From Nitrospirota bacterium (GTDB lineage Bacteria > Nitrospirota > UBA9217): a stretch of DNA of 64,000 nt. The stretch lies in NCBI GenBank assembly GCA_963818475.1, contig CAWFSF010000006.1, forward strand, positions 1,920,001-1,984,000. Reading direction: 5' to 3'. The translations under genes were made by a program, and so were the position numbers. The first letter of the stretch is position 1, and every line of letters begins with the position of its first letter. The notes beneath the pieces are model-generated. The model was not told where the DNA came from and made no database searches. It worked only from the letters and a program-made list of their open reading frames with translations. This document shows, piece by piece, positions 13,848 to 29,821 of this stretch.

Positions 13848-14180
13848 CTCTCGCAGAGGCGCGGAGGCCGCAGAGAAAGTCCAGACTATTAACGATCAAA
13901 ATCAACTTCGATCTCTCGCAAAGCTCGCAAAGGTCGCAAAGAGAATCTAAACGGTGAACATCAAGACAATAACAAAATCAACACCTATCGCTCGCAGAGC
14001 CGCAGAGACGCTGAGAAAAATAAGGCTTCTGTTCCGGTTTCAAAATAAAGCTTAGAATTTTTGCTCTCTCTGCGCCTCCGCGCCTCTGCGAGAGAACGCT
14101 TTGCTTAGCCTTTTTCTGCGTCCTCTGCGAGAAAATGCCCTAGCCGTATCCGCGTTCATCCGCCGTTATCCGCGTCCCCT
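13848..14180. repeat. Composite palindromic repeat cluster, largely repeated at 17565-17762
   Basis: cgcagagccgcagagacgctgagaaaa...ttgctctctctgcgcctccgcg and ctcgcaaagctcgcaaagg occur on both sides of treS. Confidence 0.85.
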
Positions 14181-17777: not shown

Positions 17778-19772
17778 TCACAGAAAATAATCAAAATCCG
17801 TCTCGCGCTTCAGCTTCTTCCGCACCCGGAAGATGTTCCCCGGCATGACCTGCGGGTTGATCTGCACGAAGTTCCGCTCCCCTTCCCAGATGTACTTGTC
17901 GTCGCCGATCAGGTCGTGCACCAGGTAGGGCTTGTGCTCGCCCAGCCCGAGTTCCTCCACCGGGACCTTTACCCAGCCGGACTGGGTGTGAAAGGGGTCG
18001 AGGTTCACCACGATGATGAGGCTGTTCTCGCCGTCCTCGGTCGACTTGCCGTAACACAGCAGGTTGTCGTTCTCGGTCTCGTAGAACTCCAGGTTCCAGG
18101 TGGTCTGGAGCGCCTTGTTCTCCCGCCGTATGCGGTTGATGCGCGCGATCACGTCACGCAGGCTTTTGGGATCATCGAGATTCCAGCTTTTGATCTCGTA
18201 CTTTTCGGAATTAAGATACTCTTCCTTCCCGGGGATCGCCTCGTTCACGCAGAGTTCGAAGGCCGGTCCGTAGATCCCGATGTTCGAGGAGAGCGTGGCT
18301 GCCAGCAGATAGCGCGTAATGAACGCCGGCCTGCCGCCGTACTGCAGGTGCTCCGGCAGGATGTCCGGCGTGTTCGGCCAGAAGTTCGGCCGAAAGAGGT
18401 CACGGAGGTCGCTCTGCGTCAGCTCGGTCAGGTACTCCATGAACTCCCGCTTGGTATACCGCCAGGTGAAGTAGGTATAGGACTGGGCGAACCCGACCTT
18501 GCCGAGCCGGTACATGGTCTTGGGCCGCGTGAAGGCTTCGGCAAGGAAGAACACCTCCGGATGCTCTTTCCGGATACCGCCAATGAGCCATTGCCAGAAA
18601 GCAAAGGGTTTGGTGTGCGGATTGTCCACGCGGAAGATGCGCACGCCCTTCTTGATCCAGAACCGCACCACCCGCCCGATCTCCTCCCAGAGCGCTTTCC
18701 AGTCTTCGGTCTCGAAATTGAGGGGATAAATATCCTCATATTTTTTGGGAGGGTTCTCCGCGTACTGCACCGTATTGTCGGGCCGCCAGCGGAACCATGT
18801 CGGGTGGTCCTTCACATAGGGATGGTCGGGAGAGCACTGGAGCGCGAGATCGATCGCCACATCGATGTCCTGCTCCTTCGCCTTCTGTACGAACCGCTCG
18901 AAGTCCGGGATCGTGCCGAGGTCCGGATGGATTGCGTCGTGGCCGCCTTCTTCGGACCCGATGGCCCAGGGGCTCCCCACGTCGCCCGGCCCAGCCTTTG
19001 GCGCATTGTTCTTCCCTTTCCGCTCCGTTTTGCCGATGGGATGGATGGGCGGGAGATAGATCACGTCGAACCCCATCTCCTTGATATAAGGAATGAGCTT
19101 TTCGCAGTCCCGGAAGGTCCCGTGGGTCCCCTGCTCCGGCGTACAGGAGCGCGGGAAGAACTCGTACCAGGTGCTGAAGAGCGCCTTGGGAACATCCACG
19201 ACAACGACAAGTTCCTTGTCGTAGGACACGGAAAAAGCGCGGTCCGGAAAGGCAGCCATGAGATCGGCGAGCTTTTCGCTCAAGGCGAGGGACCCGGCCT
19301 CTGGGTCGTCCTTTTTCACCGCATCCGCCAGCCGGTCGCGGAGCGCCCGGAGTTCCTGTCGCTCCTTGCTATCTTCTCCGCGGCCAAGCGCAGACTCGAT
19401 CAGGATCAGCCCGGTCAGAAACTCCATCTTCACGTCCTGTTGCGCGTCCACCCTTTTTTTGAGGTCCCGCTGCCAGGTCTTGAAGTGGTCAACCCAGCCT
19501 TCCAGAGCATAGACGTAGGCGCCCAGTTCCGTGACCGTAAACCGCGCCTCCCACCTGTCGTTCAGCCGGGGCTCGAAGGGGACCTCTTTCCATGCCCCGC
19601 CCTTCTCATGTTTATACAGGAGCCGGGCAGAGAGCGAGTCATGGCCGTCCGAGAAAATGTCCGCGGACACGACCACGCTTTCACCTATCACGCGCTTGGC
19701 CGGGAACCTGCCGCAGTTGATCTCGGGTTTCACATTCTCGATAACGACCCGTTTTCTGCCGTCTTCTGCCAA
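17778..19772 (-). CDS. glgE: Alpha-1,4-glucan:maltose-1-phosphate maltosyltransferase
   Basis: WYEFFPRS, YLPPIHPIG, AENPPKKYEDI, FRVDNPHTKP, FLAEAFTRP, FWPNTPDIL. Confidence 0.96.
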   Translation of the reverse strand: MAEDGRKRVVIENVKPEINCGRFPAKRVIGESVVVSADIFSDGHDSLSARLLYKHEKGGAWKEVPFEPRLNDRWEARFTVTELGAYVYALEGWVDHFKTWQRDLKKRVDAQQDVKMEFLTGLILIESALGRGEDSKERQELRALRDRLADAVKKDDPEAGSLALSEKLADLMAAFPDRAFSVSYDKELVVVVDVPKALFSTWYEFFPRSCTPEQGTHGTFRDCEKLIPYIKEMGFDVIYLPPIHPIGKTERKGKNNAPKAGPGDVGSPWAIGSEEGGHDAIHPDLGTIPDFERFVQKAKEQDIDVAIDLALQCSPDHPYVKDHPTWFRWRPDNTVQYAENPPKKYEDIYPLNFETEDWKALWEEIGRVVRFWIKKGVRIFRVDNPHTKPFAFWQWLIGGIRKEHPEVFFLAEAFTRPKTMYRLGKVGFAQSYTYFTWRYTKREFMEYLTELTQSDLRDLFRPNFWPNTPDILPEHLQYGGRPAFITRYLLAATLSSNIGIYGPAFELCVNEAIPGKEEYLNSEKYEIKSWNLDDPKSLRDVIARINRIRRENKALQTTWNLEFYETENDNLLCYGKSTEDGENSLIIVVNLDPFHTQSGWVKVPVEELGLGEHKPYLVHDLIGDDKYIWEGERNFVQINPQVMPGNIFRVRKKLKRETDFDYFL

Positions 19773-20752: not shown

Positions 20753-20861
20753 GTTTATCATAAACCGTAAAAGTTTATGATAGCAATAACCGGTTTACGT
20801 TATCATAAACTTGCTTATGTTATCATAAACCGACTTGCTTATAGTCAACAACATGTTAGTT
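20753..20861 (+). mobile_element. attI-like integron recombination site
   Basis: TATCATAAAC three times direct and once inverted, ttgcttat twice, ending in GTTAGTT 27 bp before the first cassette ORF. Confidence 0.6.
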
Positions 20862-21192: not shown

Positions 21193-21272
21193 AGGGGACG
21201 TTGTTTCCATCCATGCTTTCCTTGCATGGGTTGGGGCAAGGCCGTAAGGCAAGCATAGAAACAACGTCCCCT
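21193..21272. mobile_element. 80-bp element with perfect 15-bp terminal inverted repeats
   Basis: aggggacgttgtttc ... gaaacaacgtcccct. Confidence 0.7.
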
Positions 21273-21291
21273 GTGATCTCCTTTTGAAAAA

Positions 21292-21801: not shown

Positions 21802-21803
21802 GA

Positions 21804-21863
21804 TGCTAACCATTCGGCTCGAGAGGGTCGCGAAAACCGCGCCCCTCAGCCGAGCCGTTAGTA
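21804..21863 (+). mobile_element. attC site 1
   Basis: tgctAAC cattcggctcgagagggtcgcgaaaaccgcgcccctcagccgagcc GTTagta. Confidence 0.9.
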
Positions 21864-21880: not shown

Positions 21881-22186
21881 ATGGACAAACAGATAAAATG
21901 CAAGAACTGTAACAACTCATTTGACCCACGGAATAATCGTTTATTCGTGTTTGACTCACTTCCAAAAGAAGAGAAAATGTGGCCATCACCAGCTCTTGAA
22001 AATATGCATAAGGAATGGTGGAATTTTAATATCGTGAAGTGTCCGCAATGCGGAAATCAATTCCGGACAAAAGAGCTAAAGCTGCTCGGTGTGTTTTCTC
22101 CGATGGGGCTTCTTGTATTCGTAATATCTTTTGATATTTCATTGGTTTTATATTTTATTTTTGTTGTTTTGAAAGTGCGATTCTAA
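21881..22186 (+). CDS. Cassette zinc-ribbon protein with a C-terminal TM helix
   Basis: CKNC and CPQC pairs, hydrophobic tail. Confidence 0.7.
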   Translation: MDKQIKCKNCNNSFDPRNNRLFVFDSLPKEEKMWPSPALENMHKEWWNFNIVKCPQCGNQFRTKELKLLGVFSPMGLLVFVISFDISLVLYFIFVVLKVRF

Positions 22187-22222
22187 CTTGCGGGCACGAC
22201 GCGCAAAAGCTGCGTGTTAGGA
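22181..22222 (+). mobile_element. attC site 2 (short, degenerate, 42 bp)
   Basis: ttctAAC ... GTTagga with an internally deleted stem. Confidence 0.6.
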
Positions 22223-22229
22223 GGACGTT

Positions 22230-22721: not shown

Positions 22722-22744
22722 CGGGGCTATCACTCCGACGATGA

Positions 22745-22803
22745 TTCTAACCATTCGGCTTGAGCGGGTCGCGAAAACCGCGCCCTCAGCCGAGCCGTTA
22801 TAT
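22745..22803 (+). mobile_element. attC site 3
   Basis: Near-identical to attC1; ttctAAC...GTTatat. Confidence 0.9.
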
Positions 22804-22831
22804 TGACTGTCGAGCACTAGGAACGTGTGAC

Positions 22832-23551
22832 ATGACGAAATGTTCTCGATATCTTTTACATGCCCTCCTTTCAGTCGTTGCGTTCTTTGTGGTGTGTACA
22901 CTACAAAGCCAAGCAGCTGCGGTGTCGGACGTAATGCATTTTACAGATGACTACCCAACGTGCTCTTTCTCGGCGATTGACGCGAAAACCGGTAATCCAG
23001 TCAAGAATGTATTCGCTATTGCGGAATGGTACAAGGATGTCAGTGTGATGGAGTATGCTACAACGCTATGCCGGAATGCCTACAGAGTACGGTCCGATGG
23101 ATCGGTGTTCTCCATACCTGCTGCTCGTTGCTCGGGATTCCGTCATAACACAACCTTGGAGGTTCGTGTTAAAGCATTAGGATATCGAGTAAAGAAAATT
23201 CGGATATTGAGGCGCCCAAAGACTTCTCACCTTATTCCTCATATCACTTATCTGCCCATCAAAGACTGCGGTAAGGTTCCCCAACTATTGCCACTTGAAA
23301 AAATCCAATCGATCGATAAGGCGCTCGAACAGTATCAAGACAAATATAATCGAGATCAAATTGCAACAGTGTATGGTAATACCGAGACCTATCATGACCA
23401 AATGGTGTCGGAGCTCAAGAACTTTGACCCTCGTCTTGATGTCTCCGAAGCGAGAAAGTCCTATTGCGGAGTCGTACTCAAAGACATTCCTCAGACTGAG
23501 AATAGAGCCAAACTGATCGAATGGACAGAGCCGTACTGCACGGACCGTTGA
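22832..23551 (+). CDS. Cassette exported protein (hypothetical)
   Basis: Signal-peptide-like N-terminus, IDAKTGNPVKNV segment, several Cys. Confidence 0.7.
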   Translation: MTKCSRYLLHALLSVVAFFVVCTLQSQAAAVSDVMHFTDDYPTCSFSAIDAKTGNPVKNVFAIAEWYKDVSVMEYATTLCRNAYRVRSDGSVFSIPAARCSGFRHNTTLEVRVKALGYRVKKIRILRRPKTSHLIPHITYLPIKDCGKVPQLLPLEKIQSIDKALEQYQDKYNRDQIATVYGNTETYHDQMVSELKNFDPRLDVSEARKSYCGVVLKDIPQTENRAKLIEWTEPYCTDR

Positions 23552-23576
23552 CCGAACGGAGACATCGGTAAGAACG

Positions 23577-23632
23577 TCATAACGAGTCGTTCCACGCCGA
23601 CCGCTGCGCGGCGTGTGAACTCGTCGTTCTCT
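23577..23632 (+). mobile_element. attC site 4
   Basis: tcatAAC gagtcgttccacgccgaccgctgcgcggcgtgtgaactcgtc GTTctct. Confidence 0.9.
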
Positions 23633-23762
23633 CCGGCGCTGCGCGCCGGAGAGAACCCCCGGGGCTGAGCCATGAGCTCCTTCCCGGCGCGAGCGCGCCG
23701 GGAGAACCAGGAGCTGGAGACCAATGGACCTGCGGTCCATGGCTCAGCCCCGGGGGTTATAC
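23626..23762 (+). mobile_element. ORF-less 130-bp cassette with an atypical multibranched attC (site 5, 23650-23762)
   Basis: Starts GTTCTCT, the exact complement of its own R'' AGAGAAC; a perfect 21-bp outer stem encloses two hairpins. Confidence 0.75.
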
Positions 23763-23781
23763 CTGAGAGAAGGTAGGGAAG

Positions 23782-24358
23782 ATGAAAAATAAGAAATACA
23801 AATTTTGGAGCGATATATTTCCTATCATAATCTCGGTTATCGCTCTATTTTTTTCAGGTATAAGCCTTTGGCACTCGGATGCTTCATTAACCCTTAGTGA
23901 AAAAACTGCAAAACCATATTTAGATATAAAATTTAAAAAATATTCAGGCAATGATGAATATTACACATTAAAAAGAACTGCTGCCGGTGTCCAAGTAAGC
24001 TTTCAATTTGAACTTGAGAATACAGGCGCTGTGCCTATTACTGATGTATCAATATCAAAATTTGTATTTTATAACCGCAATAAAAATACAAAACAGACTA
24101 TAGAAAACAGCATCGAAAAAATGGTGATCTACCCAGGGAAAAGCAAACTTCTTATTGAAAGCATTCTCTTGGATCGATTCGATATTTCGTAAGGAAGCTG
24201 CCTGGAAGTTAGCACAAAAAGAAGGTTTTATTTTTGATATCGAATTTACTGTAGAGTATTCCAATATTATTGACAGAACAATAAAAACTAAAAGTGAAAT
24301 GGGATACAAATTCAGTAAGGCATTTGCCGAGATTACAAAAAATATATTAGTTGAATGA
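23782..24358 (+). CDS. Cassette membrane-anchored protein (frameshift near 24170)
   Basis: N-terminal TM helix; two overlapping ORFs fill one cassette; AT-rich. Confidence 0.65.
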
Positions 24359-24370
24359 CAATTAGAAAGG

Positions 24371-24426
24371 TAATAACAAATCGTTCCACGCCGACCGCTT
24401 CGCGGCGTGTGAACTCATCGTTAGAG
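24371..24426 (+). mobile_element. attC site 6
   Basis: Near-identical to attC4; taatAAC...GTTagag. Confidence 0.9.
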
Positions 24427-29223: not shown

Positions 29224-29297
29224 GCGTTGAAATGATCGTTGTAAATATATCCGCAAAATGATAATATTTAGACAGGTCAAAGCGAAGGAGGTATTTT

Positions 29298-29519
29298 ATG
29301 CGCGTTAAAGACCTTCCTGAAATATCCAATTTAACCATCCCTGAGAAAATTTTGCTCGTTGAGGACCTATGGGACAGTATTTCCGCGGATGAAACATCCA
29401 TTCCAATACCAGAAAGCCACAAAACAGAACTCGATGCGAGACTCAAGCGATATGAATCTACTCCGGGCGCCCTCCTGTCTCTTGATGACCTTCGAACAAG
29501 AATCGAAAAGAGAAAATGA
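29298..29519 (+). CDS. Addiction-module antitoxin (TIGR02574-like)
   Basis: EKILLVEDLWDSI...HKTELDARL; overlaps the toxin start. Confidence 0.85.
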   Translation: MRVKDLPEISNLTIPEKILLVEDLWDSISADETSIPIPESHKTELDARLKRYESTPGALLSLDDLRTRIEKRK

Positions 29520-29821
29520 CATATCATCTTCGTTTTCTGCCCGAAGTCGAAGATGATGCCGTCAGTGGCCTTTCATGGTATGAAACGAAATCGCCGGGAT
29601 TAGGCGATGAATTTCTTCGAATGTTCTATGCCTGCGCCGGCGATATTCCTCGCAATCCTCTCCTTTATCGAAAAGTGTACGAAGAATTCAGGCGCTGTTT
29701 GATCAGAAGATTCCCCTACGCTATCTACTTCACTATAAAGAATGACCAGATCATCGTAACCGGTCTATTTCATTGTGCACGTGATCCACACCGCGTCGAG
29801 TCGCTGCTATCAGGCCGATAA
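29516..29821 (+). CDS. RelE/ParE family toxin
   Basis: WYETKSPGLGDEFL, RRCLIRRFPYAIYF, FHCARDP. Confidence 0.88.
   Translation: MTYHLRFLPEVEDDAVSGLSWYETKSPGLGDEFLRMFYACAGDIPRNPLLYRKVYEEFRRCLIRRFPYAIYFTIKNDQIIVTGLFHCARDPHRVESLLSGR

Follow-up and report, generated by a model that had tools for sequence, protein, structure and literature searches.

An ORF-less element of 130 nt, lodged in a cassette array of a Nitrospirota bacterium, is probably a minimal integron cassette, presumably selfish, whose attC site is non-canonical. The element occupies positions 23627-23756 of the window, i.e., the whole 64,000-nt stretch of contig CAWFSF010000006.1 that was analysed, and belongs to a family of approximately 130-nt elements that is conserved and shows covariation. 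Members of this family keep the box order of an attC site and drop the features by which such sites are defined, yet they bear the footprint of frequent and precise movement in many phyla.

The element is surrounded by a low-G+C cassette array extending over approximately 20.8-30 kb of the window, where attC sites are recognisable at ~21802-21862, 22186-22225, 22743-22802, 23567-23632 and 24367-24425, with others beyond. The cassette genes of this array have either no function or only a DUF assignment. The attC immediately upstream of the element, labelled attC4 in the initial annotation of this DNA, is composed of R'' TCATAAC, L'' GTTCCAC, the apex CCGC-TGC-GCGG, L' GTGTGAAC, the spacer TCGTC and R' GTT, and a second copy, 89% identical, is located at 24367-24422. 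No integrase was found adjoining the array, and no IntI scored above the family cut-off in the whole genome (91% complete). The same genome contains no second copy of the element, so that no spread is visible there. Two ORFs on the - strand cross the element (23285-23740, 151 aa; 23491-23724, 77 aa), both antisense to the upstream cassette gene, while no ORF of at least 40 aa lies on the + strand of the element segment. The features of the locus are collected in Table 1.

Table 1. Coordinates in the window of the 130-nt element, its structural parts and the adjoining cassettes.
Feature	Position	Strand	Description
Upstream-cassette gene	22760..23551	+	263 aa, no Pfam family
Canonical attC of the upstream cassette	23567..23632	+	Recognised from sequence; R' GTT at 23626-23628
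ORF-less cassette proper	23627..23756	+	130 nt; crossover points G|TT at 23626/23627 and 23756/23757
Hairpin H1	23626..23656	+	Perfect 14 bp, GTTCTCTCCGGCGC-tgc-GCGCCGGAGAGAAC; TGC loop
Outer stem P1	23654-23674 with 23738-23758	+	AACCCCCGGGGCTGAGCCATG with CATGGCTCAGCCCCGGGGGTT; 21 perfect bp
P1 5' arm	23657..23674	+	Fully paired spacer CCCCGG, then L''-like box GCTGAGC (23664-23670)
P2 enclosing P2a	23675..23715	+	P2 AGCTCCT/AGGAGCT; P2a (23682-23703) TCCCGGCGC-gagc-GCGCCGGGA
Unpaired junction strand J2/3	23716..23725	+	GGAGACCAAT; family consensus GARACCRAY, conserved
P3 hairpin	23726..23738	+	GGACC-TGC-GGTCC; last base competes with P1
P1 3' arm	23738..23762	+	L'-like box GCTCAGC (23742-23748), paired spacer, R' GTTATAC (23756-23762)
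Downstream-cassette gene	23782..24192	+	136 aa; DUF7507 match only sub-threshold; own attC (24367-24425) follows

Structurally, the element is a three-way junction enclosed by the outer stem P1, to which the hairpin H1 is added. The base of H1 is a duplex between the cassette start, (G)TTCTCT, and the cassette's own R'' AGAGAAC (23650-23656), with CCGGCGC-TGC-GCGCCGG as its cap, and the terminal AAC of the hairpin is also the opening of P1. The outer stem of the window copy reads AGAGAAC, CCCCGG, GCTGAGC ... GCTCAGC, CCGGGG, GTTATAC; from the TT of this R' box onward, the bases are those of the next cassette. Within the junction, P2a is a near-copy of H1 ending in GGGAGAAC, and the 3' side of P2 presents a conserved unpaired GAACC at 23704-23708. 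The stem of P3 can be written as (AT)GGACC-tgc-GGTCC(AT), its terminal bases competing with the outer stem, and it is capped by a triloop reading TNC on the top strand and GNA on the bottom strand. The element is composed of two parts: a non-canonical attC of ~113 nt and ~21 nt whose sole visible role is to pair with the element's own R'', forming H1.

As single-stranded DNA, the region 23560-23790 folds with -81.5 kcal/mol on the + strand and -81.2 kcal/mol on the - strand, against -42.9 and -41.2 kcal/mol for shuffled sequences (z-scores of -10.97 and -10.86, respectively), and none of 200 shuffles folds as well. All the stems that the initial annotation had described between 23626 and 23762 are present at those coordinates, with a z-score of about -11 on either strand. 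Its description of the segment as ORF-less (no + strand ORF of at least 40 aa), as placed directly after an attC GTT, and as starting with a GTTCTCT complementary to R'' AGAGAAC is likewise borne out, the two latter sequences being paired in a helix where 10 of 11 pairs covary.

H1 and P2a resemble attC apex modules, their GTTC...CGC-TGC-GCG...GAAC design being shared by the canonical attC of the window. By eye, the two hairpins change together in variant subfamilies (GAGAAT/GAGAAC, GAGATT/GAGATC, CATATT/CATATC). In a regex-anchored identity test their co-variation was weak, with 5.18 of 9 positions identical versus 4.89 after permutation and registers that are imprecise. The duplicate hairpin P2a may give the same protein a further site to bind, or allow an alternative pairing.

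Integron integrases read attC sites by their unpaired spacer, their extrahelical bases and the AAC/GTT triplets, the last being, to our knowledge, the sole invariant bases of these sites. The total length of canonical attCs ranges from ~57 to 141 nt, and their terminal structure is variable, without sequence conservation. When the element is read in these terms, its outer stem displays R'' (GAGAAC/GAGAAT), a 5-6-nt spacer, L'' (GYTRAGC), the variable part, L' (GCTYARC), a second 5-6-nt spacer and R' (GTT/ATT), with GTTAAGC and GCTTAAC as the inner boxes of a second subfamily. A pattern search picked out both L boxes in 60 of 103 copies; spacers were 5/5 or 6/6 in 57 of these 60 and equal in length on both arms in 58. 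The outer triplets were AAT...ATT in 35 copies, AAC...GTT in 23, including the window copy, and mixed in two, with covariation between the R'' and R' triplets. Two canonical attCs of the window (21802-21862 and 22743-22802) use the same GGCTGAG/CTCAGCC duplex as their L box, in which they have an extra base, and their spacer is largely unpaired.

The element therefore has in common with canonical attCs the box order, the 5-6-nt spacers, an imperfect palindrome, GNA-type apex loops on the bottom strand, a bottom strand that is slightly more stable, and crossover at the first base of R'. In contrast to them, it has no unpaired central spacer, since CCCCGG and CCGGGG are complementary in the window and the spacer is paired across the family, and its outer stem carries no extrahelical bases (21 perfect bp in the window), the sole asymmetry being found inside the three-way junction. 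The initial annotation had pointed to both absences in the window stem, and they extend to the family, in keeping with the equal spacer lengths. Furthermore, AAT/ATT replaces the usual triplets in 35/60 copies, and the variable part takes the form of a three-way junction of ~75 nt, conserved in sequence, with a second R-box-like hairpin; the attC-like site measures ~113 nt, within the canonical range of lengths. The element keeps the binding boxes of an attC and drops its usual unpaired features, and is a putative substrate for recombination.

Relatives with 73-84% identity were retrieved by BLAST from 20 of 61 related genomes. In an alignment of 17 sequences (A1) with a 47-pair structure, 84.5% of the cells were paired, versus 34-46% with slid partners; 21 columns were invariant, and 23 of the 47 pairs change on both sides, a number reached in none of 500 shuffles. 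Changes on both sides concern 10 of 11 pairs of helix 1 (H1) in A1 and 15 of 17 pairs of helix 4 (the outer stem P1). A covariance model was built from the 17 copies of A1. The 90 model-aligned matches of alignment A3, which is fitted to the model and leans towards its structure, had 88.3% of cells paired versus 38-48% with slid partners, with 42 of 47 pairs changing on both sides and 95.3% of cells paired in helix 4. Covariation analysis and a search for homologs had been proposed as checks on the element, and both gave positive answers, the BLAST and covariance model searches finding relatives in the window's own family and beyond.

Model matches occurred in 31 of the 64 genomes of that family, with a maximum of 10 copies per genome, and in 20 of the 151 genomes of a sample of the phylum, across six families. 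One genome per species was also scanned with a pattern, which gave 113 stretches; 80 were returned as loci, and the model confirmed 69 of these. According to record titles, confirmed loci are mostly from Nitrospirota, the others being from Nitrospinota, 'Deltaproteobacteria'/Thermodesulfobacteriota/Syntrophales, Gallionella, Ca. Brocadia sapporoensis, Methylomirabilis, Armatimonadetes, Dehalococcoidales and Patescibacteria; going by these labels, the family is present in at least seven phyla besides Nitrospirota. One contig end labelled Bifidobacteriaceae also matches the element. The 11 loci that the model did not confirm, among them the Clostridia, Flavobacterium and Acidimicrobiia records, appear to have matched the pattern by chance. 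Among 72,556 plasmid records, no match was found.

Several arrays contain from three to seven near-identical copies at cassette spacing (loci L136, L185, L130 and G087). Deletion derivatives also occur, in which the inner part is joined to half of an attC or to H1 (L020, L063 at 4340, L123 and L159, the last having H1 joined to P2a). In one subfamily the element starts with GAT instead of GTT, and a compensating change keeps H1 paired, which suggests selection on the linear form, either integrated or transcribed.

The junctions were surveyed through the flanks of 103 distinct copies, repeated loci being counted once. Under an automatic rule requiring a hairpin of at least 8 bp that ends no more than 12 nt before the junction, 62 copies are placed after a canonical attC-like hairpin and 17 after an attI-like module, which leaves 24 with neither. 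The initial annotation asked whether homologs always follow an attC GTT: the 62 hairpin-associated and 17 attI-associated copies largely conform to this, and the remaining 24 do not. Inspected by eye, about half of these 24 are attC or attI sites split by the fold, and the rest are mostly 5'-truncated copies. Copies terminate in ATT or GTT followed by AG, AT or AA, like the R' boxes of these arrays, and tandem copies have one ATT in common (L154, L133). The orientation of the element is fixed: the 500 nt downstream have their longest ORF on the element's strand in 78 of 93 copies.

The attI-like module is a conserved sequence of ~75 nt with the layout GTCAAG...TTGAC...TGnTAnnnT...TAATAACTG|GTT. 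At three loci (L177, L136 and L133), the divergent gene upstream of the module encodes an integron integrase, with TIGR02249 scores of 372.8, 381.5 and 366.4 bits, respectively (cut-off 265), and the three proteins are mutually 82-85% identical. This integrase clade seems to have an extra N-terminal domain of ~170 residues. Searched for by itself in 401 Nitrospirota genomes, the module was present 20 times, in 18 genomes, and the reversed pattern gave no hit. The 20 modules are followed by the element in five cases (four full matches and one cut by a contig end) and by ordinary cassette starts (GTTAG..., GTTAA...) in 15. The module is regarded as attI-like because IntI lies beside three of its copies, it occurs independently of the element, and ordinary cassette starts follow it in 15/20 cases. 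Since these 15 modules precede other cassettes, the element is not part of the integron platform and represents an alternative and frequent first cassette. In the 64 genomes of the window's own family, 18 have both the element and IntI, 13 only the element, 14 only IntI and 19 neither, a weak association. Movement of the element by an integron integrase is putative, the link between the two being one of association.

Both flanks of the window copy exist without the element, as emerged from comparing contigs of four metagenome runs (four studies) with positions 22800-24400 of the window. Many contigs carry the same attC type with other neighbours, and most matches end between 23622 and 23635; the best-supported loose ends are at 23628, followed by AG... 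sequences, and some contigs run on into another copy of the element. Record 22 of X5 holds the 3' part of the upstream gene and the 5' part of its attC, and a separate X5 loose end at 23620, belonging to a record not linked to record 22, displays the attC type with a different R' continuation and no element. On the other side, the match of record 15 of X2 (485 nt aligned, 16 differences) begins at 23755 and covers the downstream cassette, with unrelated sequence before it. The breakpoints fall within a base or two of both G|TT points, which identifies 23627-23756 as the unit.

The loops of the element bear on whether its structure acts as folded DNA or as RNA. Triloops closed by C-G, reading TTC, TAC, TGC or TCC on the top strand and consequently GNA on the bottom strand, cap H1 in 59 and P3 in 70 of 90 copies (TTC, TAC or TGC in P3). 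GNA triloops are especially stable loops of DNA mini-hairpins, and the window's canonical attCs share the same triloop apex. With DNA parameters, the bottom strand was the more stable in 77 of 103 copies (by a mean of 1.4 kcal/mol), as it was in 35 of the 52 canonical attC-like neighbouring sites in which the strands differed. Loops and energies thus point to the bottom DNA strand over RNA as the folded form. UNCG tetraloops, considered as a sign of RNA, were dropped, the folded loops being triloops of the type C(TNC)G. On the top strand, G-T/T-G cells outnumber A-C/C-A cells by 172 to 83, counted as cells rather than events and in columns some of which are poorly aligned; this excess fits folding of the top strand or of RNA better than folding of the bottom strand. 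Of 13 sequencing runs listed for the region, none was an RNA run. Based on triloops and strand energies, the DNA reading was ranked first, with an RNA role as its main rival.

According to this rival, which we regard as unlikely, the real cargo of the element would be a structured RNA, a three-way-junction RNA of 130 nt transcribed from an attI-side promoter, with the boundaries of the integron cassette unchanged. It could act as a trans-acting sRNA, by self-cleavage, or in cis, where it might serve as a leader, influence processing or stability, or block ribosomes. The conservation of unpaired bases (GAGAACCAG and GARACCRAY) would suit such an RNA, as would the predominance of G-U over A-C cells on the sense strand (172 vs 83) and the pairing of H1 in the linear form of the GAT subfamily. 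The location of the element is also suggestive, being co-oriented with downstream ORFs in 78/93 copies, usually 10-40 nt from the start codon, and, in the attI-adjacent copies, ~10-20 nt downstream of a promoter-like site TTGAC...TGnTAnnnT identified by eye; however, the rules of cassette insertion explain orientation and position equally well. The triloops are GNA-type on the antisense strand and are not the tetraloops typical of RNA, the bottom DNA strand is the more stable in 77/103 copies, and the downstream genes encode unrelated hypothetical proteins, which argues against a riboswitch. ORF-less cassettes encoding sRNAs have been reported, according to a review (PMC8876359).

Nor did Rfam 15, including its self-cleaving ribozymes and riboswitches, contain a family matching the element at gathering score; apart from RF01681, sub-threshold matches were of miRNA type and limited to palindromes, and the group II intron models, serving as a positive control, hit the intron at locus L049. 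RF01681 (Pseudomonas sRNA P4), which has a similar layout of a 5' hairpin and a branched stem, matched the window copy with 30.5 bits (E = 2e-6 in a search of 241 nt), against a gathering score of 37. Identity with this family was rejected: the match is sub-threshold, none of 20 homologs matches (E <=0.05), and a scan of the element's own genome gave a sole match (14 bits), located elsewhere. The RF01681 match is attributable to chance or composition. Among the options listed in the initial annotation, that of a minimal cassette is favoured by the G|TT boundaries, the start complementary to the element's own R'', the homologs placed after attC or attI and the flanks lacking the element, whereas a non-coding RNA or an attenuator is less likely, loop types and strand energies favouring bottom-strand DNA.

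It is improbable that the element is immobile attC material, decayed or rearranged, made of nested or duplicated halves or forming part of a neighbour's composite attC, and carried along passively. H1 and P2a do look like attC apex modules, and deletion derivatives such as those at L020, L063 at 4340, L123 and L159 are compatible with this origin. However, the whole unit is conserved at ~73-84% within the family by BLAST and model-confirmed in records of other phyla, every helix covaries, copies occur beside many unrelated flanks, in first positions at attI and in tandems, and both flanks of the window copy occur without it.

The least credible alternative, and a very improbable one, is a non-integron mobile element targeting attC and moved by an enzyme other than IntI, such as a miniature IS1111-attC/IS110-type derivative or a relict group IIC-attC intron. 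In its favour, the element is strictly associated with attC ends, copy L049 is preceded at ~140 nt by a group II intron on the other strand, and 13 of 31 element genomes have no detectable IntI. Against it, insertion occurs exactly at the integrase crossover G|TT, at attI-like sites as well, the 3' end reproduces an R' box whose triplet covaries with that of R'', the stem carries the L-box sequence of neighbouring canonical attCs, the flanks surveyed display neither transposon-type terminal repeats nor a target duplication, the Rfam group II intron models hit the L049 intron and not the element, and a unit of 130 nt with no + strand ORF of at least 40 aa and no intron model match does not fit membership in either the IS1111-attC or the group IIC-attC group.

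A minimal integron cassette remains our preferred reading of the element, against which several observations speak. These are the missing unpaired spacer and extrahelical bases, the AAT/ATT triplets in 35/60 copies and the conserved unpaired junction bases, unlike the variable parts of canonical attCs, together with the GAT subfamily, the G-T excess (172 vs 83), the weak association between element and IntI and the lack of an IntI above the cut-off in the window's genome. If the element is such a cassette, its bottom strand would fold into a branched hairpin, in which an integron integrase would cleave R' after its first base, just before the TT. The element would then leave as a circle and re-enter at attI or attC, generating the junctions G|TT...(A/G)|TT. 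In the circular cassette, the H1 duplex would constitute an R box stacked on the outer stem, and the unit would become a closed, fully paired 'dumbbell' whose sole cargo would be the ~10-15 nt of the cap. A cargo-less element with several near-identical copies per array would be a selfish passenger of integrons, although it may affect its neighbours by offering an extra recombination site or by placing a very stable structure in the array transcript.

More tentatively, and with the balance of our judgement against it, the family may represent a new class of integron substrate. This would be a closed, fully paired 'dumbbell' devoid of unpaired spacer and extrahelical bases and tolerating AAT/ATT at the cleavage triplet, which would recruit the integrase, perhaps that of the associated clade, and set the strand by means of the conserved three-way junction with its duplicated R-box hairpin. 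As such it would be the smallest cassette, and a hyper-parasite of integrons taking the first attI position in about a quarter of that array type (5/20). Should the element recombine, the definition of a cassette site would widen, and the calling of sites by integron finders would be affected. It would also show that branched single-stranded DNA can serve in nature as a substrate for recombination, and imply that integrons, like other genetic systems, carry minimal parasites of their own.

The initial annotation had put the element forward as its best candidate for an undescribed one, and this holds within what was searched: it matches no Rfam family at threshold, and the openly accessible main texts covered yielded no description of the family. 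As a kind, non-coding cassettes are already known, and the element differs from them in being cargo-less, distributed across phyla and equipped with a rule-breaking attC. For the paralogous non-coding cassettes of Vibrio chromosomal integrons, Boucher et al. 2006 (PMC1382264) proposed either selfishness or a benefit to the integron. Like the element, these cassettes lack an ORF, retain nucleotide-level conservation across species and often have several copies in one array (PMC1382264). Their reported occurrence is confined to vibrios (PMC1382264), whereas the element family is found in records of at least eight phyla by label. Unlike the Vibrio cassettes as described there, the element is ~130 nt long and has practically nothing outside its recombination site, which is non-canonical, and it is present in one copy in the window's genome.

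ORF-less cassettes carrying promoters (Treponema, oral metagenome) or an sRNA (Xanthomonas sRNA-Xcc1) are mentioned in a review (PMC8876359), where the first position beside attI is discussed for promoter cassettes. They resemble the element in having no protein gene and in that they may act on their neighbours, but by that account they carry non-coding cargo followed by a classical attC, whereas the element is almost cargo-less (PMC8876359). No sigma-70-like promoter was seen by eye in the G+C-rich element. The DUF1874 motif is a multistem structure with conserved internal-loop bases, located in consecutive intergenic regions (Weinberg et al. 2017, PMC5737381). Its authors suspected it to be an unusual attC whose single-stranded DNA is more complex than a hairpin (PMC5737381). 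A difference is that ordinary attCs also occur in the arrays of the element's family, where they adjoin it.

Open frames of about 443-560 aa that adjoin arrays with the element have an integron integrase at their C-terminal end; the match to the integron integrase model TIGR02249 is restricted to the last ~313 residues. In the L136 integrase, the N-terminal part spans about 165 residues and includes a second SAM_4-like stretch (Pfam), and the frame at L177, another locus with an attI-like module beside the integrase gene, is shorter, at only 328 aa. An additional DNA-binding domain may be present at the N-terminus of this integrase clade. Integron integrase frames were also found in genomes of the window's own family; in the whole genome of the window, none scored above the model's cut-off (265 bits).

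The attI-like module occurs once in the window's genome, outside the window. There it leads into GTTAACC... instead of the element, so the genome has a second cassette site. Immediately 5' of the first cassette gene in the window, direct repeats of GTTATCATAAAC are followed by GTTAG, and this stretch, whose nearest upstream gene is a large ORF on the opposite strand, may be a different attI-type site starting the window's array. Beyond the same cassette gene lies a near-perfect palindrome dissimilar to the other attCs of the array, for which Rfam returned a single, sub-threshold match of miRNA type.

Deletion derivatives of the element were of three forms: the 3' half of the inner hairpin P2a joined to the 5' hairpin H1 (L159), the attI-like module followed by an element without H1 (L123), and the outer stem joined directly to a canonical attC half (L020 and L063). 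A cassette array at L049 contains a group II intron, which lies about 140 nt 5' of one copy of the element and runs in the opposite orientation.

Features of the window, its genome and other loci
Feature	Location	Strand	Details
Integron integrase frame	L136:2445-3887	+	TIGR02249
Integron integrase frame	L133:374-1870	+	TIGR02249
attI-like module	G000:C6:706907-706982 (L235)		
Large ORF	window ~17780-19770	-	
Direct repeats, GTTAG	window 20760-20860		
Palindrome, 80 nt	window 21195-21275		GGGGACGTTGTTTC ... GAAACAACGTCCCC; 3' of first cassette gene
Deletion derivative	L159:6441-6557		
Deletion derivative	L123:7861-7984		
Deletion derivative	L020:6328-6459		
Deletion derivative	L063:4320-4440		
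Group II intron	L049:956-1365	-	RF02001, 132.5 bits; RF01998, 73.4 bits
Intergenic repeats	window 13912-14061		
Intergenic repeats	window 17566-17728		
Gene pair	window 29290-29820		

Elsewhere in the window, two intergenic stretches, both adjoining gene ends, share repeats of 42 nt and 82 nt (78-88% identical) with periodic CGCAAAG/CGCAGAG motifs; these are unrelated to the integron array. Finally, one cassette contains two short neighbouring genes which, by eye, look like a candidate toxin-antitoxin pair of the addiction-module type.
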